64,000 nt of DNA from Gammaproteobacteria bacterium (GTDB lineage Bacteria; Pseudomonadota; Gammaproteobacteria; UBA4575): positions 227,116 to 291,115 of the forward strand of contig CBDCTA010000018.1 in the NCBI GenBank assembly GCA_965221955.1. The letters are read 5' to 3'. The notes under the pieces were generated by a model. The model worked only from the letters and a program-made list of their open reading frames with translations, was not told the origin of the DNA and ran no database searches. The stretch's first letter is position 1. The number at the start of each line of letters is the position of its first letter. A program made the position numbers and the translations under genes. Of this stretch, positions 3,024-59,337 are shown one piece after another.

Positions 3024-3314
3024 TGTTCCAACTCCAATTGAAATCAATTTATTTATGCATCAAAGCAAAGAAATCCTATTCAGTGCTTCATACAAAATGT
3101 AGAAAATAACTATACTTTCGTTAATTTTCCTCTCATATAAATTTACGATATAAGGCCTAACAACTAAGACCTATATCTACGGCACCTATGATAGTGACCT
3201 AAAAGAATATTTAATAATTTCTAGCCAACCACTGATCCGTTTTTTTTGCCCATTTGTCATGGTCAAAATTACGTAAAAATGTGAACTAAAAATTTTGCAC
3301 TGAGATTCAGTGAA

Positions 3315-5310
3315 TTATGACTTAGGCTCTGGAGAAATTGGTTGTAAATGCACACTTAATCGTGTCGGCTTTTGGTCCAGCTTCCACTCAAACATAGCGG
3401 TATACGCCAATACTGCGCGTACATATTCACGTGTTTCAGTAAAAGGAATGGTATCTACCCAAACGTCTGCAGGAAGTTCATACTTTTCTGGCAACCAAGC
3501 ATTTACACGATGCGGGCCTGCGTTATACGCAGCAGAAGCTAAAGCCCGATGCCCATCAAATTTATTCAGCATGTCGTCTTATATAACGACTACCTAAATT
3601 TATATTAAAACTTGGCATATATAAGTCATGCCGAGTTGGAGATTTTAGTTTGAGTTTTTTTGAAACTTGCTTTGCTGTTGCTGGCATTAACTGCATCAGG
3701 CCTCGTGCCCCTACAGGAGAACGCGCTTGAGGATTAAATGCACTTTCACGACGAATAATCCCATAGATAAATGCCGGCTCGAGACTTCTTTTGGCAGCAT
3801 ACTTTTCTACATAACTAGTAAATGGAGTTGGAAAACGAATGTTTAAATCATCAAAGTAACGACCTTTAGCAATGGTAAAAATTGCATAGTCATACCATTG
3901 CCATTGATGAGCTAACGATGCCGCAATTTGATATTGCCTTTCAGAAAAATCTTTTGTTGCATAGTTCCATTCCCTACGTGCATCGGTAAATTGATCGACT
4001 AACAACAACTCTCTTGCACGAATAATACTGGGTGTTTGCTCGATCTTTTCTAGCTCAGACGCATTGTATTGCACAGGTATGCATCAACAATATTGTATGG
4101 CTTAGAAAGTTTGTCTGCGGCCAAAAAACCATAATAACTGCGATCTTCAGCAATTTTTTCGTACAAAGCTTTTGCATCAGACCGCAAACCTTTTTCTTCT
4201 AAAGCACGCGCTTTCCAGTATTGCCATTGTGGTTCAGCTTTTTCTTCTTCATTTAGCATTGCAATTCCGCGTAGCACCAAGTTCCCAATCCAAACTACGC
4301 AAAGCTGAGCGCGTCCTCCACATGCTAGTGGAAGGATCAACTAAATCTTTTGGTAATTGATACATCCAAGTAGTCGCACGTTCATCATGGCGATATGCTG
4401 CACGCAAAGCTAAATTCCTTTCTACTTCATCATGCAAATCTGAACCAAATGCATAATTATCTTGAATGCTCAACCATCTCTCATATGCTTGACTTAAATC
4501 TTTCCTTGCTAAGCGTTGCATTCCATGGCGAATAATTTGCCGATTCTGATGGTTATCTTTCTGCAAGGCATTTGATAGTAATTTAGCTTTAGGATTACGA
4601 TAGGTTTCTAGCCAGAGTTTAGCTTGCTCTTGCTCACTCGCAGGTAATTTTTTAGCTAGGTATCTCGCTAAACTAAGACGATTATTCTCCATAGCCAAAG
4701 CAAATCGTTCCCAAATTAGCTCAGTGGTTAAATAACCTTGCTGGTTATACCAATCAAATAATGAATCGCATTGTTTAGGTTGTGATTTCCCAACTAACCA
4801 TAAATCGCGCGCTTGATTAAGATATTGTTTTTTATTTTCTTCGAATTGGTTATGACGAATCTTGGCACGCAAAAAATAACATTGCAGAGCAATAGCATTA
4901 TCATTTTGATAATATTTTAAAAAACTTTCGGAACGACCTTTTCTTTGCAATTGATAGAGCCAAGCAACACGCAAACGATCGGCTAATGGACTCTCTTTAT
5001 TTGCAGCAATAAAAACATCTACTTCTTGATTGCTTAAACTTGCAATGCGTAGCTTTAACTCTTCGTAATTCAGATAAGGAAATAAAGGATATTCAGTCAA
5101 CCTTGCTGAGTATTGATTAAATTGATTAATCTGTTTTTTAACCAGCGCTTTACGCGCTTTCTTATATAGTTCGCGCTCTTCTTGCCACTGTGTATTTGCA
5201 TGAACAACACCAATTGACATGCAAACAACGAACGCAGCTCTTAACAAACTAAAGAGCGAAAAAGATATAAATTGATGGGTAAGGATGTGCGGCGCTAAAA
5301 ACTGCCGCAC
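3315..5310 (-). pseudogene. slt: Soluble lytic murein transglycosylase Slt70, broken by three frameshifts (pseudogene or sequencing errors); start uncertain
   Basis: Four consecutive ORF pieces give YPLFPYL..., RSYYGFLAA, IRRESAFNP, GARGLMQLMP, AAYNAGP, IPFTETREYV in correct order. Confidence 0.85.
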
Positions 5311-5319
5311 ATCCTTTTT
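5281..5319. other. Perfect 13-bp hairpin between bactofilin and slt
   Basis: AAGGATGTGCGGC-N10-GCCGCACATCCTT, T-run on + strand only. Confidence 0.7.
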
Positions 5320-5329
5320 AGAATAGCAT

Positions 5330-5791
5330 TTAGAAAGAAGTTGCCTCTTCGAATGATTCTTTGAGGTTGTCTTGAGATTTATCTGCGGCAATTTTTGTAC
5401 TTTTAGAATCAGGTTGGTCAATGAGACCACTTCCATCATGGATTTTCATAGTCCCATCTATCATCGCACCCTGTGCTACAGATACACTGGTGCCACTCAC
5501 ATTGCCAAAGATTCTAGCACTTCCTGTAATTTCTAGCTTGCCTCGAGCAAAAACATCACCCTTTACCGTTCCGCCTATAATTACATCGTCAGTATGAATA
5601 TTGCCTTCCCAAACCGCGGTTGAAACCAGTTCAACTAGACCATCGATATCACCATCGCCCTTCACCTGACCGCTGATCACAATAGAGCCAGTACCTTTGA
5701 CGTCACCATTAATGACAAAATCTTTCCCTAGAATAGTTGCTGGTGTTGAAACCTTGTCACGTAATTTTCGCATACCCATAGGGGCCTCCAC
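5330..5791 (-). CDS. Bactofilin (CcmA-family polymer-forming cytoskeletal protein)
   Basis: TILGK..INGDV...I.ISGQVKGD..., G.V.G.V.A...LEI...ARI.GNV beta-helix pattern. Confidence 0.9.
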   Translation of the reverse strand: MEAPMGMRKLRDKVSTPATILGKDFVINGDVKGTGSIVISGQVKGDGDIDGLVELVSTAVWEGNIHTDDVIIGGTVKGDVFARGKLEITGSARIFGNVSGTSVSVAQGAMIDGTMKIHDGSGLIDQPDSKSTKIAADKSQDNLKESFEEATSF

Positions 5792-6209: not shown

Positions 6210-7403
6210 CTAGCTTTTCTCAATCACTTTAAAAACATTCGTCTGCTGTTGCTTTTCTTCACGTAATTTTGTTTCTTGAATCGTTGAATAGTGACTAATT
6301 TCCACTTGTTCTTCAATTTTCGAAGCCACAATCGAAGAGTACGTACTTAATTTACCCATCCCTTTTAACTTACGATGCAAATTATCTTGCTGCCACCCTG
6401 CTGGCATCGCATCATGAATAATAAGAATACCATTAGGTTTAAGATTGCCCCAAACTTGATCAAGCAAAGCTATTTGTTGAGCTTCATCTAAGCTAGATAA
6501 TGCGTGAATCAGACAAATTACATCTGCTTTGTCACTTGAATTAGCAGTTTCAATAGAACCAAGATGAATCTTATGCTGATCACCTGTATGTGGGGCAAAA
6601 TAGCTAGCAAAACTTTTCGTCACCACCTCATCTATCGCTGCAATATGAGTCGTAACCCCTCTATCAACATTAATATAGTTACTTAACAACAAATCGGTAA
6701 CTAACAATCCATAATCATTACTCACGCAATCTACTGACACCGCTTTTTTAGCGCCAAAGTAATCTAAGATAATTCTTTCGATAACCGAGCTGTGGGTATA
6801 ATTCGCCCACGCTCTTATCGCCATTTTTGCATAAACACTGGCTATCTCATCCCGATTACCTGATTGCAATAGTTTGCCAAGTGCAAGATTTGAACGTTGT
6901 TGATAAAACCATTCTGCACTACTTGGAATAGGGTCTGGCCATTTACGTCCTACTCCAAGTGACATGACACCATCATTTTCTGCACGCACATTACTAAAGC
7001 CTGTCCAACGTTCACGACTTAAGAAAATATTTTCCAAAAAACTTCGTGACCAATAACCTTTTTCCTGCGCCTGACCTTCTGGATATACGGGAAGAATGAC
7101 AACGCCACCGGGTTTAACAATTTTTAAAAGTTCTAATAAAAATGAAGCGCCCCAATTACTTGCAAACAAAGGTATGCTGATACCGATATATACTCGATCT
7201 AATAAATTAGGCAAAGTTGGATAAAAGAAATTACCAATCTTGTCATCATCTAAATTCACACTCAAATGATTTGCAGTTGGTGTCATACTGTAAATATTAT
7301 CGTCTGGACGAATTTGATTATTTTTATCTCGCTCACCAGAAAAATAATAATCTAAATCTTCACTAATGAATTCTTCCGATAGATGAAATGCTGCATCTGT
7401 CAT
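6210..7403 (-). CDS. Hypothetical protein with two class I methyltransferase-like half-motifs
   Basis: LLKIVKPGGVVIL and WGNLKPNGILII; no clear glycine-rich motif I. Confidence 0.55.
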   Translation of the reverse strand: MTDAAFHLSEEFISEDLDYYFSGERDKNNQIRPDDNIYSMTPTANHLSVNLDDDKIGNFFYPTLPNLLDRVYIGISIPLFASNWGASFLLELLKIVKPGGVVILPVYPEGQAQEKGYWSRSFLENIFLSRERWTGFSNVRAENDGVMSLGVGRKWPDPIPSSAEWFYQQRSNLALGKLLQSGNRDEIASVYAKMAIRAWANYTHSSVIERIILDYFGAKKAVSVDCVSNDYGLLVTDLLLSNYINVDRGVTTHIAAIDEVVTKSFASYFAPHTGDQHKIHLGSIETANSSDKADVICLIHALSSLDEAQQIALLDQVWGNLKPNGILIIHDAMPAGWQQDNLHRKLKGMGKLSTYSSIVASKIEEQVEISHYSTIQETKLREEKQQQTNVFKVIEKS

Positions 7404-7546
7404 AGCTTAGTATTTTTTTATTTTTAATTAGAAAAACGCGAAAGCGAATTCTGCTTAAGCAGAACACTCATTGCAAGATTATTTATTAATAAGGTTAAGG
7501 AACCAGGTCTGTCCAGATTTACGGATTTTAAAGAGAAGTAATCTTG

Positions 7547-8110
7547 CTAACGGAAAGTTAGCGTTAAACCTGCACTTCCATAACGAGAATTGCTTCTTCG
7601 CGGTAATTTGCAACTTTGCGTTCTCGAGCGATTTGCATTACTCCAGCGCAACTTACCACCTGAGTATTTGCTGTAATGCTTATGATGCTTGTTTCTAAAA
7701 CCATGATGACCATAGCCAAACCGGTAAGCAGGATAGTACACACGGCTGGATCGCTCTTCTTCTTGATTCAAATAGACAACGTGTGGAACTAGAGCAGCTT
7801 GTGCTTGTTTTAACGCAGCTTTTTGTTTGACCTTTTCAAGCTGTAATTTTTTACGCTCTAAACGCTCTTCTCGCATGCGTGCCCATTGATTCGTGATCGA
7901 ATAGTAATTTTCCTTGTAGTCAGAATCAGAATAAACATTTGAAACATCTATTTGATTGGTACTAATAGGATTATTTAATGGCGCTTGATCTGAATAATGC
8001 GTCACGCCATTTTCATCCACCCACTTGTGTATAGTGCCTGCATGTACAACCGATAGCGTTATCCAGAATAACGTTACAAGTAATAAGGGTATGTACTTAA
8101 ACATATTCAT
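7547..8110 (-). CDS. DUF4124 domain secreted protein
   Basis: Signal peptide then IHKWVDENGVTHYSDQAP, coiled coil, basic tail. Confidence 0.85.
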   Translation of the reverse strand: MNMFKYIPLLLVTLFWITLSVVHAGTIHKWVDENGVTHYSDQAPLNNPISTNQIDVSNVYSDSDYKENYYSITNQWARMREERLERKKLQLEKVKQKAALKQAQAALVPHVVYLNQEEERSSRVYYPAYRFGYGHHGFRNKHHKHYSKYSGGKLRWSNANRSRTQSCKLPRRSNSRYGSAGLTLTFR

Positions 8111-42424: not shown

Positions 42425-43481
42425 ATGACAAGTACAACTCCTAGACTAGATGTCCGCAATGTAGGTGTTGAGCTGCAAGACAAAATAATATTGGGCGATG
42501 TATCACTACATCTACAGCAAGGTCAAATTGCATCAATACTAGGACCAAGTGGCTGTGGAAAAACCACTTTACTACGTGCATTAGCAGGTTTTCAGTCCAT
42601 CTCTAAAGGTGAAATTTATGTTCATGACAAACTCTTTAGCAAAGTGGGTTACTCATTAGCACCTGAAAACCGCCATATCGGCATGATGTTTCAAGATTTA
42701 GCTCTATTCCCACACTTAACCGTAGAACAGAATATTTGTTTTGGATTAACTACGTTATCAAAAAGCGAACAACAATCTAGAACTCAACAAGTTCTTGAAC
42801 TTAACTGAGCTCAGCAAACAAGAAAAAAAATATCCTCATCAATTATCTGGTGGACAACAACAACGTGTTGCACTTGCACGTGCATTAGCACCTAAACCTG
42901 AAATTCTTTTGTTAGATGAACCATTCTCAAGTCTCGACCCCGACTTAAGAGAGCAAGTAGCCACCGAAGTACGCAAAATTCTTAAACATGAAAATGTAAC
43001 TGCGGTATTAGTCACACATGATCAACACGAAGCTTTCGCAATGGCAGATGAAATTGGCGTAATGGAGAATGGCTACATCGCACAATGGGACAGCGCTTAT
43101 AATATTTATCACAAACCTAAAACAAGGTTTGTTGCAGACTTTGTTGGTTTAGGAAGCATGGTCTCTGCAACAGTGTTAGATAATGCAACACTAGACACCG
43201 AATTTGGACATGTGAAAGGCGCATTAAATGATAAGCATAAGCCGGGAGATAAAGTTGACCTTTTGGTACGTCCAGATGATATCCCGCATGATGACAGCAG
43301 CTCAATCACAGCTTTAGTAGAAGAAAAACGTTTTCGTGGCGCAGAGTTTTTATATAAGTTGCGCTTACAGAGTGGCAATTTCGTGCTTTGCTACGCACCC
43401 AGCCACCATAATCATCAGATTGGAGAACCGATTGGAATCAAACTTGATTTAGAACATCTCGTCGTTTTCCCCAAGAATTGA
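42425..43481 (+). CDS. fbpC: Fe3+ ABC transporter ATPase, one frameshift near 42803
   Basis: Walker A GPSGCGKT in first ORF; LSGGQQQR, LLLDEP and TOBE-like tail in second; deleting one A at ~42803 fuses them. Confidence 0.88.
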
Positions 43482-46998: not shown

Positions 46999-47124
46999 TC
47001 GCTGTAAATCACGCAACGTATATCTAAAAAGCACAAATTGTCACGCGCGGCCCAAATAGTTTAGGATTGCCCGTTCAATTCACTACTACCTTAGTATTAC
47101 CACTCAATTTTTAAGGAGCTGTCG

Positions 47125-47763
47125 ATGGCAGAATTACTCACAGGAAAAGCACTAGAAGAAGTCATGGAACGCAAAAATAAAATGCGTCGTGAAGCGTATG
47201 ACCGTCGTGCTGCTCAAGAAAACAAAGATGAAGTCAGTGCAAAAGCTTGTGAAAACTTCATGGCCCTACCCGAATATCAAAATGCAAAAGTTGCCATGTG
47301 GTACATCGATTGCCGTTCAGAAACACGCACCAAACCACATCTTTTAGAAGAAGTGAAAAAAGGTGAAAAGAAGATCATCGTGCCTTATTGCACTGAAGAT
47401 GAAAACGGTGAAAACAAGCTTGGTCTTTGGTGGATGGAAAGCTTGGAAGAAATGGTAGTCGGTAAATGGAATATTCTAGAACCACCTAGAGAATTATGGG
47501 GTAATCCTGAAAAAGAAGTTGAGCCTAAAGAAATCGATATCATCATGGTACCTGGTACAGGTTTTGATAAAACAGGTGGACGCATGGGTAATGGTCAAGG
47601 TTACTATGACCGCTTACTAGAACAACTTCGACCAGACTGCCCACTAGTTGCGCTTTGCTACGAATCACAATTGTTTGATGAAATTTTGGTTGCACCTCAC
47701 GATGTATACATGGACAAAGTTGTTACAGAAGCGGGTGTTTACGAAGGTAAAGGTCGAGACTAA
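47125..47763 (+). CDS. 5-formyltetrahydrofolate cyclo-ligase family protein
   Basis: K..MR N-terminus, SE..T, WNILEP, VPGTGFD..GGRMGNGQGYYDR, PHDVYMD. Confidence 0.92.
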   Translation: MAELLTGKALEEVMERKNKMRREAYDRRAAQENKDEVSAKACENFMALPEYQNAKVAMWYIDCRSETRTKPHLLEEVKKGEKKIIVPYCTEDENGENKLGLWWMESLEEMVVGKWNILEPPRELWGNPEKEVEPKEIDIIMVPGTGFDKTGGRMGNGQGYYDRLLEQLRPDCPLVALCYESQLFDEILVAPHDVYMDKVVTEAGVYEGKGRD

Positions 47764-47783
47764 TTCATATTAAAGGGAAAACA

Positions 47784-48707
47784 ATGCCTGCAAAAATTGA
47801 TGATACGTACGCAGAAGCGTTTAAAAGTTTATACACTGAGTTTCTAATCACCGCGCGCGATCGCAAATGGTTAGATCATGCAGTGAATGCTGCAACCGGA
47901 AATGCTTCAAGCTCAATTTTATGTGATTGTGAAGCAGGCATGGATCGCTATGTTGGTCCTGGTGGTGATGAAAGTTTTGAAACCCCTGATGGTCGCCCTG
48001 GTGCAATTGTTCAATTGCACGTGCCACGTTTCCGCAAAGATCGTGTTAAAGCACTTGAGCGTTCTGCATTAGTACGCATCAGTCAAAATGTCATGACTTG
48101 TCCTACGGCTTCATGTTTCAACTTAGTTGACTCTGAAGAGTACTATCACATGGGTCGCAAAGTGGCGTACTTTGGTAACGGCTACCAAAAACGCATTGAA
48201 CGTTTTGGTCGTAAAATGTGGTGGATTCCAATTTTAGGCGGTGAATTTATTTTAGATCGTCGCTTAGGATATGCGGATGGTTTAATGGGTGGCAACCTTT
48301 GGTTCTTTGGCGACAGTGTAGATTCTGCCTTACTTGCGGCGGAAAAAGGTGTTGAAGCAATTCTTCCCATGCCTGGTGTCATTACTACTTTTCCTGGTGG
48401 TATTGCAGGCAGCGGCTCAAAGGCGGGAAGTAATTATGACTTCACCATTGCAAGTACTTATGAAAAGTTTTGCCCCCTTCTTCAAGATGATCCTACCGTC
48501 GAAGCAGGATTACCTAAGGGTGTGAATTGTGTAATGGAAATCATTATGAATGGTCAAGGCATGCAGCCAATTGTTGAAGCCACACAAGCTGCAATCAAAG
48601 CCTCAGTAGATACACCGGGTTTAATAATGATTTCAGCAGGCAACTACAATGGACGTTTAGGTAAATCATTTATTTACTTAGATCCAAGTAAACAGCCCGC
48701 TGAATAG
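47784..48707 (+). CDS. Formylmethanofuran:H4MPT formyltransferase (Ftr/FhcD) family, divergent
   Basis: DDTYAEAF, CEAG, ETPDGRPG, TCPT, GGN, FPGG..SGSK, AST..FCP, SAGNYNGRLG. Confidence 0.9.
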   Translation: MPAKIDDTYAEAFKSLYTEFLITARDRKWLDHAVNAATGNASSSILCDCEAGMDRYVGPGGDESFETPDGRPGAIVQLHVPRFRKDRVKALERSALVRISQNVMTCPTASCFNLVDSEEYYHMGRKVAYFGNGYQKRIERFGRKMWWIPILGGEFILDRRLGYADGLMGGNLWFFGDSVDSALLAAEKGVEAILPMPGVITTFPGGIAGSGSKAGSNYDFTIASTYEKFCPLLQDDPTVEAGLPKGVNCVMEIIMNGQGMQPIVEATQAAIKASVDTPGLIMISAGNYNGRLGKSFIYLDPSKQPAE

Positions 48708-48724
48708 ATAATTGTTTCATGTAT

Positions 48725-48758
48725 TTAAAAAAGCCGCTGAAAACAGCGGCTTTTTTAA
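48725..48758 (+). terminator. Strong intrinsic terminator closing the cyclo-ligase/Ftr unit
   Basis: TTAAAAAAGCCGCTG-AAAA-CAGCGGCTTTTTTAA perfect inverted repeat. Confidence 0.9.
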
Positions 48759-48823: not shown

Positions 48824-49702
48824 ATGACTATAAGTTTTGAAAAAACTCCTGGTGGCGCAATTTTATTAGATGGAAAGGCTGTCGCTGAAAAACTTCAACG
48901 TAAAATTGCGAGTACTCTCGCACAATCACCTGAGTCAAAAATAACGCTTGCTACCGTTTTAATTGGTGATGATCCTGCAAGCGATTTATACGTTGGCATG
49001 AAACAAAAACGTGCAACAGCAGTCGGCATACAATCTCGACATGTGCCACTATCTGGTGATATTTCCATGCAACAAGCGTGCGATGAAATTATCAAACTCG
49101 TTGAGGATAATTCTGTTCATGGCATCCTGATCCAACTGCCGTTACCCAAGCAGCTCGATACCCACAAAATAATTGATCTACTTCCTCCTGAAAAAGATGT
49201 AGACGGTTTAAGTGAAAACAATCTCGGCAAACTTTTACGTGGTGTGGAAGGTTTAGTGCCCTGCACACCATTAGGTGTGATGCGCATTCTTGAACACTAT
49301 GAAATTCCAACGAGTGGCAAACGCGCAGTCGTCATTGGTCGTTCCACTTTAGTTGGGCTTCCACAAGTATTGTTACTTGGTCGTAAAGGAGTTGATGCAA
49401 CGGTAACGCTTGCACATTCACGCAGTGGTGATATTGGAGAAATAACCAAGTCTGCAGATATTGTTGTGGCTGCAGCAGGTATTGCTCACCTAGTTAAAAA
49501 AGAACACATTAAACCTGGTGCTACGGTGATTGATGTTGGCGTGACGAGAACAGATGAAGGCATTCGTGGCGATGTAGACTTTAATCAAGTACAAACTGTA
49601 GCTGGAGCAATTACACCTATGCCAGGCGGCACTGGGCCCATGACTGTTGCCTGTTTATTAGAAAACACATTGTATGCTGCTAAACTTCAAAACGCGCTCT
49701 AG
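48824..49702 (+). CDS. folD: Methylene-THF dehydrogenase/cyclohydrolase
   Basis: S..YV..K, GILIQLPLP, KDVDG, PCTP, TPMPGGTGPMT. Confidence 0.96.
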   Translation: MTISFEKTPGGAILLDGKAVAEKLQRKIASTLAQSPESKITLATVLIGDDPASDLYVGMKQKRATAVGIQSRHVPLSGDISMQQACDEIIKLVEDNSVHGILIQLPLPKQLDTHKIIDLLPPEKDVDGLSENNLGKLLRGVEGLVPCTPLGVMRILEHYEIPTSGKRAVVIGRSTLVGLPQVLLLGRKGVDATVTLAHSRSGDIGEITKSADIVVAAAGIAHLVKKEHIKPGATVIDVGVTRTDEGIRGDVDFNQVQTVAGAITPMPGGTGPMTVACLLENTLYAAKLQNAL

Positions 49703-49925: not shown

Positions 49926-51188
49926 ATGCCTGGCCAAAAGCTATCTAACCCTGGAAGAAATTATTTATTCTGCCCCGGCCCAACTCATATTCCACAAGCC
50001 GTTCAAAATGCGATGATCGTTCCTCAGGAAGATCACCGTGCGCCAGATTTTCCTGAACTTGTAAAACCTCTTCTAAGAGATGTTAAGAAGATTTTCAAAA
50101 CCACAAAAGGCACTTGCTTTCTATTTCCTGCAACGGGTACTGCTGGTTGGGAAATTGCACTTACCAACACTATGTCGCCAGGTGACAAAATTTTAACTAC
50201 CCGCTTTGGTCAGTTTTCTCACTTATGGTATGACCTAGCAAGACGCATTGGTTTAGAAGTGGATCTAATAGAAACACCGTGGGGCCAAGGCGTTCCCGTA
50301 GAAAAATTCAAGAAAATATTACAAGCAGACAAAAATCACGAAATTAAAGCTGTAGTTTGTTGCCATAATGAAACTGCAACCGGTGTAACCAGTGACATTG
50401 CTGCAGTAGGTAAAATGCTCAAACAAATTAAACATCCTGCACTGTTGATGGTGGACTGTGTAAGTTCAGTAGCAAGTATTGATTTCCGCATGGATCAATG
50501 GGGTGTGGACGTTGCGGTTAGCGGCTCGCAAAAAGGCTTCATGTTACCGGCTGGAATGGCAATTTTAGCTTTCAGTCCTCGCGCAATAAAAGCACGTTTA
50601 AAAGCAAAATGTGCGCGTTGCTTCTTGGATATACAAGACCACTTGAACACAAATAAAGATGGTTTTTTCCCATATACACCATCTGTACCGATGCTTCGCG
50701 GATTACGTGCGTCAATTGACTTATTGTTAGATGAAGGGTTAGAAAATGTTTTCAAACGCCACAACCGTTTAGCAGAAGGTGTACGTCGTGCTGTAAAAGC
50801 ATGGGGTCTAAAGACATGTGCAGTATCTCCAAAATGGAATTCAGATACCGTTACAGCCATTGTTGTACCTGAAAATAAAAATGCAAATGAAGTAATTCAT
50901 ATTGCATACCATAAATACAATATTTCCTTAGGTGCTGGTTTATCAAAAGTTGCTGGTAAGGTTTTCCGCATTGGACACTTAGGCGATAATAATGAAGCAC
51001 GCATGATGGCTGCTCTAGGTACGGTCGAAATGGCACTTTTAGATGCTGGCATTAAAATTAAACCTGGCAGCGGTGTAGCGGCTGCTGGTGAGTACTACCG
51101 TAAGACCGGCAAGAAAATCAAAAAATTTGCTGCACCAAAAGTGGCACCTAAGAAAAAAGCTACAAGAAGAAAAACCCCAAAAAAATAG
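49926..51188 (+). CDS. sgaA: Serine--glyoxylate aminotransferase
   Basis: PGRNYLFCPGPT, DHRAPDF, HNETATGV, GSQKGFMLP, FRIGHLG; serine-cycle context. Confidence 0.9.
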   Translation: MPGQKLSNPGRNYLFCPGPTHIPQAVQNAMIVPQEDHRAPDFPELVKPLLRDVKKIFKTTKGTCFLFPATGTAGWEIALTNTMSPGDKILTTRFGQFSHLWYDLARRIGLEVDLIETPWGQGVPVEKFKKILQADKNHEIKAVVCCHNETATGVTSDIAAVGKMLKQIKHPALLMVDCVSSVASIDFRMDQWGVDVAVSGSQKGFMLPAGMAILAFSPRAIKARLKAKCARCFLDIQDHLNTNKDGFFPYTPSVPMLRGLRASIDLLLDEGLENVFKRHNRLAEGVRRAVKAWGLKTCAVSPKWNSDTVTAIVVPENKNANEVIHIAYHKYNISLGAGLSKVAGKVFRIGHLGDNNEARMMAALGTVEMALLDAGIKIKPGSGVAAAGEYYRKTGKKIKKFAAPKVAPKKKATRRKTPKK

Positions 51189-51224: not shown

Positions 51225-52166
51225 ATGAGTTTTACACAACCTAAACCTGCCAGACAAAGAGTACAGCGATGTGAACTCGCTGTTCCAGCGTCCAGCGTCA
51301 AAATGATTGAGAAATCAGCCGACTGTGCTGCAGACTTCGTATTTTTAGATTTAGAAGATGCCGTAGCACCAGGTGACAAAGTACAAGCACGTAAAAATGC
51401 AATTGAAGCCGTAAACGATATCGACTGGGCTGGCAAAGGAAAAACAATTGTTGTACGAATCAATGGTCTTGATACGCATTACATGTATCGTGATGTCATT
51501 GATCTTGTTGAACAAGCTGGCAATAAGCTAGACACCATTTTTATTCCAAAAGTAGGTGACCCCGCGGATGTCTACATGGTGGATGCACTACTCACTCAAA
51601 TCGAAGAAGCGAAAGGGTTTGAAAATAAAATAGCCATAGAAGCAATCATTGAAACTGCACTAGGTATGGCCAATGTCGAAAAAATTGCACAATCCAGCCC
51701 TCGATTGGAAGCCTTGCACTTTGGTGTTGCGGATTACTCTGCCAGTAACCGTGCACGTACCGTCAATATCGGTGGCTTAAACCCTGATTATCCAGGTGAT
51801 CAGTGGCATTCAGCTATTTCACGTATGGTTGTAGCATGCCGTGCATACGGATTACGTCCTATTGATGGTCCGTTTGGTGATATCAAAGATGCTGAAGGCT
51901 ATATGCTTGCATGTCGTCGTGGCGCTGCATTAGGTATTGAAGGTAAATGGGCTATCCATCCATCACAAATCGAAATGGCTAATGAAGTATTTTCACCACC
52001 CGAAGAAGAAGTTGCAAAAGCGCATCGAATTCTTGAAGAACTCGAAAAAGCTGCCAAAGAAGGCAAAGGCGCAGCAACTTTGGATGGCAAAATGATTGAT
52101 GCTGCATCCGCAAAAATGGCTGAAAATGTTGTTCGCGCTGCCGAGGCAATTGCTGCTAAGTCGTAA
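51225..52166 (+). CDS. mcl: Malyl-CoA lyase
   Basis: R.ELAVP, RINGLDTHYMYRDV, LHFGVADY, GDQWH, GKWAIHPSQ. Confidence 0.92.
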   Translation: MSFTQPKPARQRVQRCELAVPASSVKMIEKSADCAADFVFLDLEDAVAPGDKVQARKNAIEAVNDIDWAGKGKTIVVRINGLDTHYMYRDVIDLVEQAGNKLDTIFIPKVGDPADVYMVDALLTQIEEAKGFENKIAIEAIIETALGMANVEKIAQSSPRLEALHFGVADYSASNRARTVNIGGLNPDYPGDQWHSAISRMVVACRAYGLRPIDGPFGDIKDAEGYMLACRRGAALGIEGKWAIHPSQIEMANEVFSPPEEEVAKAHRILEELEKAAKEGKGAATLDGKMIDAASAKMAENVVRAAEAIAAKS

Positions 52167-52437: not shown

Positions 52438-53613
52438 GTGGATATCCATGAGTATCAAGCAAAAGAAATTTTATCCGAATGCGGTGTAGGCATCGCTGAG
52501 GGTGGACTTGCCTATAGCCCTGAACAAGCTGTATATCGTGCAAAGGAAATCGGTGGCACTAAATGGGCTATCAAAGCACAGATTCATTCTGGTGCACGCG
52601 GCAAAGCCGGTGGTATCAAACTCTGTACTAATGACGAAGAAATATGGAACGCAGCAGATGAATTATTAGGCAAGCGCTTAGTAACACATCAAACTGGCCC
52701 AGCTGGCAAAGTGGTGTACCGACTTTATGTTGAACAAGCTACTGACATCGAAAAAGAACTTTATTTAGCACTGGTACTCGACCGCGATAAGCAACGTGTA
52801 GTATTTGTTACCTCAACTGAAGGCGGCATGGATATCGAAGAGGTCGCTGCAACGAAACCAGAAGCGATACACAAATTAGAAGTTGAGCCTGCGGTAGGTT
52901 TGCGTGATTTCCAAGCACGTGAACTTGCTTTTGCATTAGGCATTAAACCTGAACTAATTAGTCAAGCTGTTCACACAATAAAAGGCGCGTATCGTGCTTT
53001 CCGTGATTTCGATGCCACCATGGTTGAAATAAATCCTATGGTGATCACTAAAGACGATCGTGTATTAGCCTTAGATGCAAAAATGGGTTTTGATGACAAC
53101 GCATTATTCCGTCGTCCTCGCATAGCAGAACTTCGTGACAAGTCTCAAGAAGACCCGCGCGAAACCGCAGCATCAGACCGTGGTTTAAGTTATGTAGGGT
53201 TAGATGGAGACATTGGTTGCATGATCAATGGTGCTGGTTTAGCCATGGCAACAATGGACATGATTAAACACAAAGGTGGCGAACCTGCCAACTTCTTAGA
53301 CATCGGAGGTGGTGCTTCTCCTGACCGTGTAGCAAAAGCATTCAAACTGGTTTTAGATGACGAAAATGTTAAAGCTATGTTAGTCAATATTTTTGCTGGC
53401 ATTAATCGCTGTGACTGGATTGCAGAAGGTGTTGTTCAAGCATTTGAAAAATTAGATGTACGCGTACCGGTTGTGTGTAGATTATCTGGCACCAACGTTG
53501 AGAAAGGTATGCAAATGCTAAAAGACAGTGGGCAACCGATTATTACTGCCGACACACTTGCCGAAGCTGCAGAAAAAGTTGTAGCAGAACGCAATCGTGT
53601 TGCAGGCAGTTAA
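52438..53613 (+). CDS. mtkA: Malate--CoA ligase (malate thiokinase) beta subunit
   Basis: SucC-like with [29 protein letters not shown]; between mcl and ppc. Confidence 0.9.
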
Positions 53614-53631
53614 GGATTAGGGAGAAAAATC

Positions 53632-54522
53632 ATGACAATAATGATCGATGACAAAACAAAAGTTCTGGTACAAGGATTCACGGGCAAAATCGGTACTTTC
53701 CATGCTGAAGAAATGATGGAATACGGGACCAATGTTGTTGGCGGTGTAACACCAGGTAAAGGTGGCCAAACTCATATGGGACTACCCGTTTTCAATACTA
53801 TGAAAGATGCTGTAGCTGAAACCGGTGCAGATGCAAGTATTGTGTTTGTTCCAGGTGCATTTGCTGCAGACGGTGTAATGGAAGCAGCGGACGCCGGAAT
53901 TAAAACCTGTGTATGTATTACAGACGGTATTCCAGCTCAGGACATGATGCGTGTTAAGCGTTATATGTTTCGTTACAAGAAAGAAGACCGCATGCGCCTT
54001 ACTGGGCCAAACTGTGCTGGCAGCATCAGCCCTGGAAAATGTTTATTAGGGATCATGCCGGGTCATATTTATGCAGAAGGTAATGTGGGTGTAGTGGCAC
54101 GTTCAGGAACATTGGGCTATGAAGGCGCTTCTCAAATGAAAGCAGAAGGCATTGGTATCAGTTCCAGCATTGGTATTGGTGGTGATCCTATTAACGGAAG
54201 TTCTCACAAAGACATTCTTGAATTATTCGAAGCCGATCCTGAAACCAAGGCCGTTCTAATGATTGGTGAAATTGGTGGTCCACAAGAAGCCGAAGCAGCT
54301 GAATATTTCAAGAGCCATATGACCAAACCGTTAGTAGCCTACATTGCAGGCTTAACTGCTCCGAAAGGTCGTCGCATGGGCCATGCGGGTGCAATTGTTT
54401 CTGGCAAGGGTGAAAGTGCTGCAGAGAAAGTTGAAATGCTTAAAGAAGCAGGCGTAGTTGTTGCTCCAAATCCTTCCGAGCTTGGTTCAACTATGGCAAA
54501 AGTAATGAAAGACATTGCATAA
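53632..54522 (+). CDS. mtkB: Malate--CoA ligase alpha subunit
   Basis: SucD-like with [23 protein letters not shown]. Confidence 0.9.
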
Positions 54523-54564: not shown

Positions 54565-55536
54565 ATGAGCAAACTTAAAGTAATCGTTTCGCGTGCCTGG
54601 CCTGCAGAAGTTGAAGCTACTTTAAAAGAAAAATATGACGTGCAGTTAAATGAAAATGACATCCCAATGACTAAAGACGAAATGAAAGCGGCTTTAGGAG
54701 AATGTGATGCTTTTTTACCTACTGTAACCGACCCTGTTGATGCTGAAGTGCTCAGCGCTGAACCATTACGTGCAAAGTTTATTGGTAACTTTGGTGTTGG
54801 TTTTAATCATATTGATTTAGATGCAGCAAAAGCGCGTGGACTCACCGTAACCAATACTCCTGAAGTATTAACGGACTGTACTGCGGATATTGCCATGGCA
54901 CTTTTGCTCACGGTTGCGCGTCGCACTAGTGAAGGCGAACGCCACTTACGCTCTAAGTCTTGGACGGGATGGCGTCCTACTCATATGTTGGCTACTAAGG
55001 TAACAGGTAAAACCTTAGGTTTAATTGGCATGGGTCGTATTGCTCAAGCCATGGCACAACGTGCTCATTTTGGATTTGGTATGAAAATCATCTTCTCTGA
55101 TCCTTACCCACCTCCTGCAGATGTGATCAGCAAGTTTAATGCTACGCAAGTAGACACCATCGATGAAGTATTAGAGCAATCTGATTTTGTATCTATTCAC
55201 TGTCCTGGCGGTAAAGATACTTATCACTTATTAAACAAAGACAGTCTTGCCAAGATGAAATCTTCTGCATTCTTGATTAATTCAGCTCGTGGCGATGTTA
55301 TCGATAATGATGCCTTAATTGATGCACTTAAAAATGGCGTAATCGCTGGTGCTGGCTTAGACGTATTCGAAGGTGAGCCCGCCTTAGATGAGCGCTTTTT
55401 AGAACTTGAAAATGCGGTGTTATTGCCTCACCTCGGCAGCGCATCCACCGAAACTCGTGTAGCGATGGGCAACCGCGTGTTAGAAAATCTTGCGGCATTT
55501 GAAGCTGGTGAAACACCACGCGATAAGCTGGTATAA
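54565..55536 (+). CDS. D-2-hydroxyacid dehydrogenase, likely hydroxypyruvate reductase
   Basis: GMGRIA, INSARG, LDVFEGEP, LPHLGSA; inside serine-cycle operon. Confidence 0.85.
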   Translation: MSKLKVIVSRAWPAEVEATLKEKYDVQLNENDIPMTKDEMKAALGECDAFLPTVTDPVDAEVLSAEPLRAKFIGNFGVGFNHIDLDAAKARGLTVTNTPEVLTDCTADIAMALLLTVARRTSEGERHLRSKSWTGWRPTHMLATKVTGKTLGLIGMGRIAQAMAQRAHFGFGMKIIFSDPYPPPADVISKFNATQVDTIDEVLEQSDFVSIHCPGGKDTYHLLNKDSLAKMKSSAFLINSARGDVIDNDALIDALKNGVIAGAGLDVFEGEPALDERFLELENAVLLPHLGSASTETRVAMGNRVLENLAAFEAGETPRDKLV

Positions 55537-55675: not shown

Positions 55676-58453
55676 ATGAACGACACTTCCCCACTTTCCT
55701 GGACTCAGTTTACCAAGGTTGCCGCTGGCAGCATGATCATCAGTCCGTCAGCGACTTATGAAGATGAGTTAGTTGAATTACTTTACCAACAGCTCCTAAG
55801 TGTCATTCGCGCACGACAACCTGATGTTGAAGCGATCATCGAAGGGGATAGTGACATTCGAGATTGTTCGGTCTCTCAAATTCTTTATGTGTTACAAGCT
55901 TATGGGATTTGGTTTCAATTATTAAGTATTGCTGAACAAAATGCCATGGTGCAGCAACGCCGCCAAATTGAAAAGGAATATCACCGTGATCGTGTTCCTG
56001 GAACATTTGCTTATGCATTTTCAAGCGCGGCTCAAAAAGGCATTGCAGCCGAGGAGATTCAAACATTATTAGATAATAGTTTTATCTGTCCCGTTATTAC
56101 TGCACACCCTACTGAAGCAAAACGCGTTACCGTTTTAGAGGTACATCGTCGTATTTATGTATTACTCAAACAATTAGAACTTGAACGTTGGACCCCTAGG
56201 GAAAGAGAAGACCTTATTAACGAATTACGTAATGAAATTGATTTATTATGGCTAACCGGTGAAATTCGTTTAGAAAAACCTACCGTCGAACAAGAAGTCA
56301 CATGGGGATTACACTTTTTTGATGAGTCGCTGTTTGATGGTGTGCAGGAACTCTATGCTGAGTTAGACCGTGCACTCGAACAAGCCTATCCGCATTATGA
56401 ATTCAATGTCCCTGCGATTTTTCGTTTTGGCTCTTGGATTGGTGGCGATCGTGATGGCAATCCCATGGTTACACATAAAGTCACCGCTGCAGCAATTCAT
56501 GCAAATGCAAAAGCCTGTATAAAACGTTATCGTCAAATTATTTTTGAGCTAGGCGCAAAACTAAGTATTGCCAACCATTCAGTTGATGTATCAGAAAATT
56601 TCATGCAAGCACTTAATGAAAAACTTGCCATGCTTGGTGAAACCAAAACTTATTCACAACGCAATCCCGGAGAAGTGTTTCGTCAATTTTTGCGCTATAT
56701 GCTAACGCGTATTGATGCCACCCTTGCAAACTTAAAAAATCCAAAAAAATCGAAACTTGCATACCATCGCGCCGAAGACCTCTCAGCAGATCTAAAAATA
56801 CTTGAAAAAGGATTAACCGATGCAAAATGTGGCAACTTAAGTGACACCGATATTCGACCATTTCGCCATATGGTCGATACCTTTGGTTTCAGAACAGTTA
56901 GTTTAGATTTGCGTGAAAATACTACAGTGATAAATAGTGTGCTCGCTGAACTCTGGCTCGCACTAAACCAAAAAACTCGTTTGGATATTCCTGATCCTGC
57001 ATCGGAAGAATGGAAAAACTGGATTGTGGACCAATTAATGCAACCACTACGGGTTGTACCACGTTTTGATACTTTATCTAAGCAGGCTCAATCGACATTA
57101 GCCATGTTAGAGCAAGTGAAATACTTTCAGCGCAAGCTGGATGTAAAAGCATACGGCGTGTTTGTACTCAGCATGACCCAAACTTCGACTGATATCTTAG
57201 GAGTTTACTTGTTAGCAAAGTATGTGGGCTTGTTCACCGATTCAGATGGACTCGAAGCATGCCGAATTTTAATCGTCCCCTTACTTGAAACGATTGATGA
57301 TTTAGAAAGAGGGCCTTCGATTCTACAAGAATTATTGGAGCACGCATTTGTGCGACGCACAATTCGAAAGTTTGGTGGCTCACAAGAGGTCATGGTGGGT
57401 TATTCTGATTCGAATAAAGACGGTGGTTTTTTAACTTCGAACTGGATCATTAGTAAAGCACAATCACAAATCCATGAAACCGGTCTTAAGCACAAAGTAC
57501 CAATTTCTTTTTTCCATGGTCGTGGTGGTTCCGTCAGTCGTGGCGGCGCTCCAAGTGGACGTGCAATTGCCGCACAACCTGTAGGTACTATTGATGGCCG
57601 CATGCGTGTTACAGAACAAGGTGAAGTGGTTTCATACAAGTATGCCAACCGTGGATTCGCAGAAGAGCAGATGGAAATCCTAGCCTCTAGCGTGATTACA
57701 CACTCATTAATGTCAGGCAAAGACCCCGCTTATCAAACGAATTCAGAGTTTGATGAAGTCTTAGAAGCTTTATCAGGAACAGCTTACGTTACCTACCGAA
57801 AGCTTATCGAACATCCTGGTTTAGTAGATTTTTATCAACAAGCAAGCCCAGTCGAGGAGCTCACATTGATGAAAATAGGCTCAAGGCCGGCGCGTCGATT
57901 TGGTGCTGCTTCATTAAACGACTTACGTGCAATTCCTTGGGTCTTTGCATGGACCCAAAATCGTTTACTCGTTCCAGGCTGGTATGGAATAGGTAGTGCT
58001 ATGGAACAACTGATTAAAATTCGTGGCGAACTTGGCACAGAATTACTAAATCAGATGTACGAGAAACATTCACTGTTTAGACTAATCTTAGACGGTGCTG
58101 AAAAAACACTGCTATTAGTCGATATGGAAGTTGCAGGAAAATATTGTGAGTTAGTCACGAATGATGAACACCGCACTCAAATATTTTCTACGATTAAAGA
58201 AGAATATGAACGATCTTCACAAATGCTGTTAAAAATTACCGGCGAAGAACAGCTCTGTGACCGCTTCCCTAACTTTAAACGCCATTTCTATCGTCGTGCA
58301 GAGTCACTCAATCAAGTTGGTATTGAGCAAGTCGAATTGGTGAAAAAATTCCGCGGCGATGAACAGATCGAAAATACGACTATACAAGATATACTCGTAC
58401 CTTTACTGCTATCGATTAACTGTGTAGCTGCCGGAATCGGTAGCACTGGTTAG
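55676..58453 (+). CDS. ppc: Phosphoenolpyruvate carboxylase
   Basis: TAHPTE, GGDRDGNP, VMVGYSDSNKDGG, FHGRGGSVSRGG, LRAIPW. Confidence 0.97.
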   Translation: MNDTSPLSWTQFTKVAAGSMIISPSATYEDELVELLYQQLLSVIRARQPDVEAIIEGDSDIRDCSVSQILYVLQAYGIWFQLLSIAEQNAMVQQRRQIEKEYHRDRVPGTFAYAFSSAAQKGIAAEEIQTLLDNSFICPVITAHPTEAKRVTVLEVHRRIYVLLKQLELERWTPREREDLINELRNEIDLLWLTGEIRLEKPTVEQEVTWGLHFFDESLFDGVQELYAELDRALEQAYPHYEFNVPAIFRFGSWIGGDRDGNPMVTHKVTAAAIHANAKACIKRYRQIIFELGAKLSIANHSVDVSENFMQALNEKLAMLGETKTYSQRNPGEVFRQFLRYMLTRIDATLANLKNPKKSKLAYHRAEDLSADLKILEKGLTDAKCGNLSDTDIRPFRHMVDTFGFRTVSLDLRENTTVINSVLAELWLALNQKTRLDIPDPASEEWKNWIVDQLMQPLRVVPRFDTLSKQAQSTLAMLEQVKYFQRKLDVKAYGVFVLSMTQTSTDILGVYLLAKYVGLFTDSDGLEACRILIVPLLETIDDLERGPSILQELLEHAFVRRTIRKFGGSQEVMVGYSDSNKDGGFLTSNWIISKAQSQIHETGLKHKVPISFFHGRGGSVSRGGAPSGRAIAAQPVGTIDGRMRVTEQGEVVSYKYANRGFAEEQMEILASSVITHSLMSGKDPAYQTNSEFDEVLEALSGTAYVTYRKLIEHPGLVDFYQQASPVEELTLMKIGSRPARRFGAASLNDLRAIPWVFAWTQNRLLVPGWYGIGSAMEQLIKIRGELGTELLNQMYEKHSLFRLILDGAEKTLLLVDMEVAGKYCELVTNDEHRTQIFSTIKEEYERSSQMLLKITGEEQLCDRFPNFKRHFYRRAESLNQVGIEQVELVKKFRGDEQIENTTIQDILVPLLLSINCVAAGIGSTG

Positions 58454-58479: not shown

Positions 58480-59337
58480 ATGAAAAAACTTTTATATCAT
58501 TTTGATACTGACCCTATTGCCAGCGTGTTCGACTCAGTTGTCGCACATGACGGTGGTGCTGATCACGTAACTCAACTAAGTGGAGTTAACGAAGAAAACT
58601 GTGGCGGCCTGGTTGAAGGTGCTATTTATACGCGCGCACCTAAAGATAAGAAAAATACTGCAATTTTTGTAGGAGGTAGTGATTTGGTTGCGGGCCAAAA
58701 ACTTTTTCAAGCAGTACAAAATGAGTTTTTTGCAAATTTTCGTGTATCGGCGATGCTCGACAGCAATGGTTGCAACACTACTTCTGCAGCAGGAGTAGCT
58801 TTGCTTAATAAAGCTACAGATTTACAAGACAAAACTGCTGTTGTACTTGCAGGAACGGGCCCAGTGGGACAAAGAGCCGCAGTTTTACTGGCCAGTAGTG
58901 GTGCCAATGTTCGATTAACTTCTCGCAAACAATCCCGTTCAACAGAAGCATGCGATGAGATGCATGAACGTTTTGGTGTAGAAATGACACCTATGCAAGC
59001 CAGTGATGATGCATCTATTGAACAAGCAATGGATGGCGCACATGTAGTGTTTGGTGCCGCTAAAGCAGGTATACAATTACTCAATGCAAGGCAATGGCAA
59101 GATCACTCAACTTTAGAACTTATTGCAGATGTAGGCACTTCAAAAATTCTTGGTTTTGAAGGTATAGATGTAATGGATAAAGACACTGAAAGACATGGAA
59201 AAAGAGTATTTGGAGGCATCGGAATTGGTGCATTAAAACTTAAATTACACCGCGCTTGTATAGCTAAATTGTTTGATTCTAACGATGTGGTGTTAGATGC
59301 TGAAGACATATATAAAATAGCGCAAACTATGGCTTAA
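58480..59337 (+). CDS. mtdA: NADP-dependent methylene-H4MPT/H4F dehydrogenase (MtdA-type)
   Basis: KKLL.HFDTD..SVFD.VV..DGGAD, IYTR, MLDSNG.NTT, AGTGPVGQR. Confidence 0.88.
   Translation: MKKLLYHFDTDPIASVFDSVVAHDGGADHVTQLSGVNEENCGGLVEGAIYTRAPKDKKNTAIFVGGSDLVAGQKLFQAVQNEFFANFRVSAMLDSNGCNTTSAAGVALLNKATDLQDKTAVVLAGTGPVGQRAAVLLASSGANVRLTSRKQSRSTEACDEMHERFGVEMTPMQASDDASIEQAMDGAHVVFGAAKAGIQLLNARQWQDHSTLELIADVGTSKILGFEGIDVMDKDTERHGKRVFGGIGIGALKLKLHRACIAKLFDSNDVVLDAEDIYKIAQTMA

Follow-up and report, generated by a model that had tools for sequence, protein, structure and literature searches.

The 64,000-nucleotide (nt) stretch of gammaproteobacterial DNA analysed here (positions 227,116 to 291,115 of contig CBDCTA010000018.1, assembly GCA_965221955.1; below, the window, on contig C18) contains a two-gene unit that encodes a 5-formyltetrahydrofolate (5-formyl-THF) cyclo-ligase, MTHFS, and a divergent paralogue of the formyltransferase Ftr/FhcD that we call FtrL, and the observations below suggest that the pair is an undescribed formyl route from the methanopterin/methanofuran carriers to folate. 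In the textbook account for Methylorubrum, the two one-carbon carrier systems of bacteria are joined enzymatically only through free formate and the ligase FtfL. No description of an FtrL paralogue or of an MTHFS-FtrL pair was found in the literature, in which a remark in the planctomycete papers of 2004–2013 or in supplements is possible. To judge from comparisons among genomes, MTHFS and FtrL are a co-inherited, horizontally spread two-gene module. We propose tentatively, at a little under an even chance, that FtrL transfers a formyl group from formyl-methanofuran (or from 5-formyl-tetrahydromethanopterin, 5-formyl-H4MPT) to N5 of THF and that MTHFS with ATP then gives methenyl-THF; the more specific version, in which FtrL is a formyl-methanofuran:THF N5-formyltransferase that forms with its co-evolved MTHFS a mobile, formate-independent formyl bridge from H4MPT/methanofuran to folate, is one we hold with still more reserve. 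The unit consists of the following features:

47113–47118, + strand: Shine-Dalgarno-like AAGGAG, read from the sequence, 6 nt ahead of the MTHFS ATG.
47125–47763, + strand: MTHFS (5-formyl-THF cyclo-ligase), type 1 module form, 212 amino acids (PF01812, TIGR02727).
47784–48707, + strand: FtrL, divergent orphan Ftr/FhcD paralogue, 307 amino acids (PF01913 and PF02741).
48727–48756, + strand: intrinsic terminator hairpin that ends the MTHFS-FtrL unit, bidirectional (called from fold energy; on the minus strand in a terminator scan).

FtrL is one of three Ftr homologues in this genome (2.69 Mb assembly, 96.6% complete), and scores 293 bits where the two canonical copies, both on contig C28, score 428.7 and 408.4 bits. 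Each canonical fhcD lies within its own fhc/fwd cluster on C28, with FtrL encoded apart from both; FtrL is therefore a third, orphan paralogue, 38–42% identical to the genome's own two FhcD proteins, and not the genome's only fhcD, a point that an earlier note on this DNA, made from the sequence alone, had left to be checked. Cluster 1 on C28 (120549–127800, locus L138) encodes a FwdD-like open reading frame (ORF), FwdB, FwdA, FhcD, FwdC, a ferredoxin and a GltD-like protein, and it looks like a real formylmethanofuran dehydrogenase: its FwdB scores 506 bits, with 378 bits for the solved FwdB 5t5i_B and only 56 bits for the degenerate M. extorquens FhcB, and it retains SVCHGPS and the N-terminal Cys motif. 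Relatives of this FwdB in Planctomycetota and Acidobacteriota have an in-frame TGA, possibly a selenocysteine codon. In cluster 2 an Fhc-type set, whose FhcB scores 230.8 bits, below its cut-off, precedes an NAD-linked formate dehydrogenase; MtdB, Mch and Fae are encoded together with cofactor genes in an H4MPT island, likewise on C28. The window itself is free of fhcA/B/C, mch, fch and ftfL, as had been noted; all matches to fhcA/B/C, mch and ftfL are on other contigs, and fch (PF04961) had no match anywhere in the 96.6% complete genome. MTHFS is the genome's sole PF01812 gene and FolD its only copy found (one tblastn match genome-wide), both of which the earlier note had overlooked, together with an MtdA-like gene at 58480–59337. 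Searches of the genome gave neither RuBisCO nor hexulose-phosphate synthase, and no pyrroloquinoline quinone (PQQ) methanol dehydrogenase scored above cut-off in it.

FtrL has a full-length Ftr fold, its two lobes matching PF01913 at 143.9 bits (residues 4–150) and PF02741 at 155 bits (residues 153–299), and public annotation names it as the canonical formyltransferase. It scores 293.5 bits against the FhcD equivalog TIGR03119 (cut-off 292.6) and also reaches the PRK02114 cut-off; the FtrL proteins of four other genomes (G043, G044, G047 and G048) score 276.6–289.9 bits, below the TIGR03119 cut-off, and canonical copies score 383–461. All 27 FtrL sequences have the catalytic glutamate, E252, and the same column holds Glu in 96% of 51 canonical sequences; we take it to be the equivalent of Glu245 in M. 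kandleri Ftr. The catalytic residue of FhcD is given as Glu252 in a section of PMC6926001. Forty-nine columns are at least 85% conserved in the 51 canonical sequences, and FtrL retains 46 of these at clade level (41 by a strict identity test), the three clade-level changes being R19E (R in 94% of canonical and E in 100% of FtrL sequences), M151L and V254I. Fourteen invariant residues are specific to the FtrL clade, whose signature residues are E19, S100, N102 and T267. Five motif departures that the earlier note had listed hold against the consensus of the 51 canonical sequences (TGNASS for TGFATS, RISQNV for RIGQCV, GIAGSGSK for GIVRSGSK, ASTY for ASTN, and EIIMN for EIVID). A basic insertion, HVPRFRKDRVK, that had been described along with them survives in part: a five-residue insert, HVPRF (residues 79–83), is present with basic residues after it, but only HVPRF is inserted, and a second five-residue insert, GGDES (residues 60–64), had been missed. 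Because the catalytic Glu and most conserved columns are kept, FtrL is very probably an active formyltransferase, and the part that has changed is very probably the coenzyme-binding periphery, the chemistry being retained.

In a tree of 78 Ftr sequences (a quick search, with support from the Shimodaira-Hasegawa-like approximate likelihood ratio test, SH-aLRT, only) FtrL is a single group of 27 sequences with SH-aLRT support of 100, a stem of 1.09 substitutions per site and short internal branches, which answers the earlier note's call for a tree with a single well-supported clade. The gammaproteobacterial FtrL sequences are nested inside those of planctomycetes (support 99). A comparison with 50%-identity representatives of some 15 billion proteins gave one full-length sequence at 67% identity to FtrL, the next full-length ones being at 43–44%; the nearest neighbours of FtrL in the tree (P0165 and P0197) are on long branches, and archaeal proteins are both its closest named representatives and its best solved matches. 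Across phyla FtrL is 66–78% identical, compared with 48–57% for canonical FhcD, in Planctomycetota and Acidobacteriota genomes. Within the host family the identities are 84–98% for FtrL, 77–95% for MTHFS and 48–86% for FolD, and FtrL is kept even in genomes of 1.5–1.8 Mb.

FtrL was found in all 24 other genomes of the host family and in none of 16 genomes of other families in the class. MTHFS lies directly upstream of it in 23 of the 24 family loci (the 24th begins inside FtrL), with FolD next in 22 of 24. A scan with one genome per species gave 80 FtrL loci, 66–98% identical, in Gammaproteobacteria (including Candidatus Porisulfidus, Candidatus Oxydemutatoraceae, Arenicellales and a Methylococcaceae metagenome-assembled genome, MAG), Planctomycetota and Acidobacteriota. 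Of these 80 loci, 67 have MTHFS immediately 5' of FtrL in the same orientation, one has it divergent and 12 do not have it; three of the 12 have at most 151 nt of upstream DNA, so that the informative count is 67 of 77. The adjacency of the two genes, which the earlier note had asked to be examined, is thus conserved across three phyla. Locus L068, a 9.4 kb contig labelled Planctomycetaceae, encodes an FtrL and an MTHFS that are 80% and 76% identical to those of the window, and because these identities equal those of gammaproteobacterial loci this contig may be mis-binned.

Other neighbours of the pair vary: away from the loci with serine-cycle genes they include glycine-cleavage P subunits (two loci), lipoate ligase (two), mfnB (one), fwdBAC (one) and H4MPT-type cofactor genes (one). 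Both glycine-cleavage P-protein subunits precede the pair at the Planctomycetaceae loci L100 and L122 (~1691–5366), and a lipoate-protein ligase follows it at L117 (6911–7747) and L118 (7225–7998), also of Planctomycetaceae; these neighbours are a further tie to folate-dependent glycine metabolism. At L087, of the Methylococcaceae MAG, mfnB (6965–7672; 4-(hydroxymethyl)-2-furancarboxaldehyde-phosphate synthase, PF04476, 228 bits) lies directly 3' of FtrL, and at L127 fwdBAC adjoins it. A constant third linked gene was considered and dropped, none being common to 26 loci.

The MTHFS of the window matches the full-length domain (PF01812, 130.1 bits against a cut-off of 27; TIGR02727, 128.9 against 84.9), and among solved proteins 1sou and 1ydm match it best, at 73 bits. 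It contains the Gly-rich G-x-G-Y-Y-D-R segment as GNGQGYYDR, presumably with the nucleotide-binding role that this segment has in the family; the segment is kept in all 31 aligned module copies, in which G155, G157, G159, Y160, Y161 and D162 are invariant. Each of 25 diverse FtrL genomes contains exactly one MTHFS (adjoining FtrL in 19), or 26 genomes when that of the window is added, and the enzyme must therefore also serve any folate housekeeping role. The tallies over the 25 diverse genomes include G051, which is flagged as unpublished and whose locus, L076, is among the 80; the conclusions are independent of it. Full-length identity to the module MTHFS of other phyla (planctomycete and acidobacterial) is 45–64%; MTHFS of same-class genomes that do not contain FtrL give only partial matches at 25–45%. 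In two Planctomycetota FtrL genomes where MTHFS is not linked to FtrL, it is still of the module kind, 66–68% identical to module copies; of 28 genomes without FtrL, 9 gave matches at 33–47% and 19 gave none. Pairwise FtrL and MTHFS identities are correlated (r = 0.73, a value reached by 0 of 2000 permutations). On these alignments the module MTHFS forms a subclade of its own, which goes with FtrL also where the two genes lie apart, and is not the ordinary MTHFS of each lineage. The identities of the two proteins co-vary and MTHFS is of the module type even where unlinked; the pair therefore behaves as one evolving unit across phylum boundaries.

Alignment of 31 loci also divides the module MTHFS into two forms, a split that is mirrored in the subclades of the FtrL tree. 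Type 1, which occurs in Gammaproteobacteria, Acidobacteriota and some Planctomycetota, contains an insert (..DENGxNKLGLW..VGKW.ILEPP); type 2 is shorter and occurs in other Planctomycetota.

FtrL is found alongside canonical FhcD in 24 of the 25 diverse FtrL genomes (in two of the 24 the canonical protein is in pieces). Among 201 evenly sampled Planctomycetota genomes an Ftr of either kind occurs in 23, of which 20 have only the canonical protein, three have both and none has FtrL alone; every FtrL genome that was examined has H4MPT genes. FtrL depends on canonical FhcD. Locus L127 at one point suggested that FtrL replaces FhcD in some genomes, but the same contig encodes a canonical FhcD, and the idea was discarded. 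Also discarded was a tie between FtrL and the dehydrogenase-type FwdB, a type that occurs commonly whether FtrL is there or not and that was found in neither G044 nor G046, both FtrL genomes.

Ftr enzymes formylate N5 of their pterin, and N5-formyl-THF is the substrate of MTHFS; formylation of THF by FtrL is therefore the simplest way to make the two steps consecutive. In the proposed route, FtrL would move the formyl group of formyl-methanofuran/methylofuran (or, less likely, of 5-formyl-H4MPT) to N5 of THF, MTHFS would use ATP to cyclise the resulting 5-formyl-THF to 5,10-methenyl-THF, and FolD or MtdA would reduce this to methylene-THF for the serine cycle, or FolD would open the ring to give 10-formyl-THF. 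The net reaction and ATP cost would equal those of FtfL plus Fch, with free formate bypassed. On the folate side, FolD, which acts on THF-bound units, follows the pair in the family loci counted above. We infer the acceptor (THF), the donor (formyl-methanofuran) and the direction of flux of this route, the first two from gene association. 5-Formyl-THF is highly stable. Hydrolysis of formyl-methylofuran has a value of -22.9 kJ/mol and transfer from H4MPT to methylofuran one of +4.4 kJ/mol, as given in a section of PMC6926001. These energies and the stability of 5-formyl-THF together imply that transfer to THF should be downhill, with ATP spent at the cyclo-ligase step.

The ftfL pattern in the host family bears on this route. 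The ftfL gene of the present genome (C26:76529–78237, loci L004 and L005) is split in the assembled sequence by a single frameshift near residue 310. Among the 24 other family genomes ftfL was found in four (and in 3 of 14 other genomes of the genus), and it was not found in several closed family genomes; of four relatives in the class that have Fhc and not FtrL, three have ftfL. One FtrL-less relative, G038, has ftfL convergent with and about 80 nt past the ppc gene of the same serine-cycle operon, and upstream of that operon it has no MTHFS, FtrL or FolD. Of the hints that the pair does the job of FtfL, this exchange of position is the strongest, though it is a single case among kin that are not independent. 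The comparisons that the earlier note had called for favour its reading, which is partly supported, and of its refuting outcomes none that sequence comparison could reach was seen. Support for its suggestion that the bridge bypasses FtfL on the way to the serine cycle is limited: in Planctomycetota and Acidobacteriota the modules occur without the serine-cycle operon, and in Planctomycetota FtfL shows no anticorrelation with FtrL.

Several observations count against the bridge. Its main obstacle is the donor: the Fhc of Methylorubrum extorquens binds methylofuran tightly as a prosthetic group, with 97% of the methylofuran protein-bound according to PMC6926001, and a free-standing FtrL might not reach Fhc-bound methylofuran. 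FtrL might dock on the Fhc complex, use the archaeal-like Fwd system, or take its formyl group from 5-formyl-H4MPT. On the other side, H4MPT occupies a shallow, weakly binding cleft in Ftr, which would make a change of acceptor plausible. No new acceptor for FtrL can be read from its sequence by itself, in which R19E is the only strongly conserved column that is radically altered at clade level. The adjacency of the sole-copy MTHFS to FtrL could partly reflect its housekeeping role; a Pfam scan of 127 neighbouring ORFs at 26 loci found no third conserved partner; the Planctomycetota and Acidobacteriota modules lie outside any serine-cycle operon; and relatives are non-independent samples. In Planctomycetota FtfL occurs in 7 of 20 genomes without FtrL and, with FtrL, in 1 of 2 in one sample and 3 of 14 in another, and an intact FtfL is present in the FtrL genomes G048, G049, G051, G052, G062 and G065. 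Mutual exclusion of FtrL and FtfL in Planctomycetota was dropped as a candidate, FtfL being about equally frequent with and without FtrL.

The same facts can be read in other ways. FtrL could be an ordinary formylmethanofuran:H4MPT formyltransferase isoenzyme, stand-alone in the archaeal manner and working with free methanofuran or with one of the Fhc/Fwd systems, with MTHFS a housekeeping enzyme and the linkage a matter of co-regulation. Its scores above the FhcD equivalog and PRK02114 cut-offs, its catalytic Glu and conserved columns, its better match to a stand-alone Ftr of archaea (1m5h, 233.9 bits) than to the complex-bound M. extorquens FhcD (6s6y_D, 169.5 bits) and the single copy of MTHFS in each genome examined all agree with this; but where canonical FhcD is so regularly kept such an isoenzyme would be redundancy under unusually strong constraint, the specialised, co-travelling MTHFS subclade would be left unexplained, and the long stem, R19E and two inserts also speak against it, and we consider it unlikely. 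We regard as distinctly improbable a scheme in which both enzymes act on H4MPT, with FtrL making 5-formyl-H4MPT and the MTHFS-family protein being an ATP-dependent 5-formyl-H4MPT cyclo-ligase that gives methenyl-H4MPT. There is precedent for it in methanogens without folate, which have an MTHFS homologue suggested, in a passage of PMC3087415, to act on 5-formyl-H4MPT, and both the distinctness of the module MTHFS subclade and the presence of H4MPT genes in every FtrL genome examined are in keeping with it. Such a scheme would however leave these genomes without a folate MTHFS and, since Mch is present and interconverts the same compounds without ATP, would presumably cycle futilely, and the best solved MTHFS relatives are bacterial folate enzymes, as the gammaproteobacterial downstream partners are FolD, a folate enzyme, and the serine cycle.

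The reverse direction, already listed as an alternative in the earlier note, would have FtrL salvage the formyl group of inhibitory 5-formyl-THF, a by-product of serine hydroxymethyltransferase, by moving it to methanofuran for hydrolysis or oxidation, with MTHFS as a parallel ATP-dependent drain. It gives the products of both genes a common substrate, which fits their linkage, and the Fhc/Fwd systems that could pull the reaction are present; yet two drains for a trace metabolite are an unlikely reason for FtrL being the most conserved gene of the cluster or for co-transfer of the pair between phyla, and, 5-formyl-THF being very stable, passing its formyl group to methanofuran should be thermodynamically uphill, so that we think this reading has very little chance of being correct. 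Formyl transfer by FtrL from methanofuran to folate thus remains our preferred, if tentative, reading.

Comparison with known systems places the pair as follows. Canonical bacterial FhcD, including that of M. extorquens (6S6Y), has the same two Pfam domains and length as FtrL and a catalytic Glu aligned with E252, but FtrL lies outside the fhcBADC cluster, in a separate long-stem clade with R19E and two inserts, and is accompanied by MTHFS rather than by FhcA/B/C, both fhc/fwd clusters having their own FhcD. The archaeal Ftr proteins (1FTR/2FHJ, 1M5H and 1M5S) are the best solved matches of FtrL, at 225.7–233.9 bits over the full length, and are likewise encoded without complex partners; FtrL differs from them in being bacterial, linked to a folate enzyme and accompanied by a canonical copy, with about 44% identity at best to representatives outside its clade. 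FtfL plus Fch shares with the FtrL-MTHFS route the proposed net reaction, ATP cost and product, methenyl-THF, but the proteins are unrelated, and FtrL-MTHFS would use no free formate and would enter at 5-formyl-THF instead of 10-formyl-THF. M. extorquens needs FtfL for growth on one-carbon (C1) compounds. Two earlier cases of a similar kind are described in PMC3087415: the Ftr-like subunit of Eha, an Ftr paralogue whose role is a different one, and Methanothermobacter MTH204, an MTHFS homologue found next to H4MPT chemistry; both are archaeal and, unlike FtrL and MTHFS, unlinked to one another. The copy that belongs to Eha is considered an unlikely formyltransferase, whereas FtrL keeps its catalytic residues.

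If the proposed bridge is real, it would replace FtfL/Fch as the serine-cycle feed in a small-genome marine family of Gammaproteobacteria, would explain serine-cycle genomes that have neither ftfL nor fch, and would partly account for the long-puzzling H4MPT gene set of Planctomycetota and Acidobacteriota. With a direct formyl bridge, flux models of methylotrophy would also change, a gene pair of wide occurrence would gain a function, and synthetic C1 assimilation would have at hand a compact part made of two genes; fed by formate or CO2 via a reversed Fhc/Fwd system, the bridge would open a new way into folate-based C1 assimilation.

Downstream of the pair in the window are FolD and a serine-cycle gene cluster, as the earlier note had stated:

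48824–49702, + strand: FolD, methylene-THF dehydrogenase / methenyl-THF cyclohydrolase (PF02882 and PF00763).
49926–51188, + strand: Sga, serine-glyoxylate-type class V aminotransferase with a Lys/Ala/Pro-rich C-terminal tail (domain match).
51225–52166, + strand: malyl-CoA lyase-like Mcl of the HpcH/HpaI family (domain match).
52438–54522, + strand: malate-CoA ligase (MtkA, MtkB), beta subunit at 52438–53613 (NF010647, 698.1 against a cut-off of 604) and alpha subunit at 53632–54522.
54565–55536, + strand: Hpr, hydroxypyruvate/glyoxylate reductase-like 2-hydroxyacid dehydrogenase (profile match).
55676–58453, + strand: Ppc, phosphoenolpyruvate carboxylase (profile match).
58480–59337, + strand: MtdA-like methylene-THF/H4MPT dehydrogenase with an Mpt_N domain, at the end of the cluster.

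Membership of the serine cycle was checked for Sga, Hpr, Mcl, MtkAB and Ppc, which are encoded together here (glycerate kinase and glyA were outside the search), and serine-cycle genes adjoin the pair only in loci labelled Gammaproteobacteria, Thiotrichales/Thiothrix, Chromatiales, Arenicellales or Candidatus Porisulfidus. Upstream the unit's neighbour is ilvD. The spacing and the strong terminator described for the unit are both borne out: the ORFs at 47125–47763 and 47784–48707, both on the + strand, leave a gap of 20 nt, and the hairpin at 48727–48756 (GCCGCUG-AAAA-CAGCGGC followed by U6) folds at -21.3 kcal/mol (z = -7.4), a stability equalled by 0 of 200 shuffles. A consensus terminator scan reported this hairpin for the minus strand alone. 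Neither terminator-like nor promoter-like sites between 46800 and 50000 are in excess over shuffled sequence, and a candidate -35/-10 pair at 47038–47067 is not claimed since promoter-like sites are no commoner there than in shuffles; Rfam at gathering thresholds gave zero matches over the whole window. The Lys/Ala/Pro-rich tail of Sga is basic and extends about 25 residues past the family domain. At 42425–43481 an ABC-transporter ATPase is present as two overlapping ORFs of 127 and 228 amino acids, whose halves match positions 3–121 and 120–352 of PhnT2, a second frameshift in the assembly.

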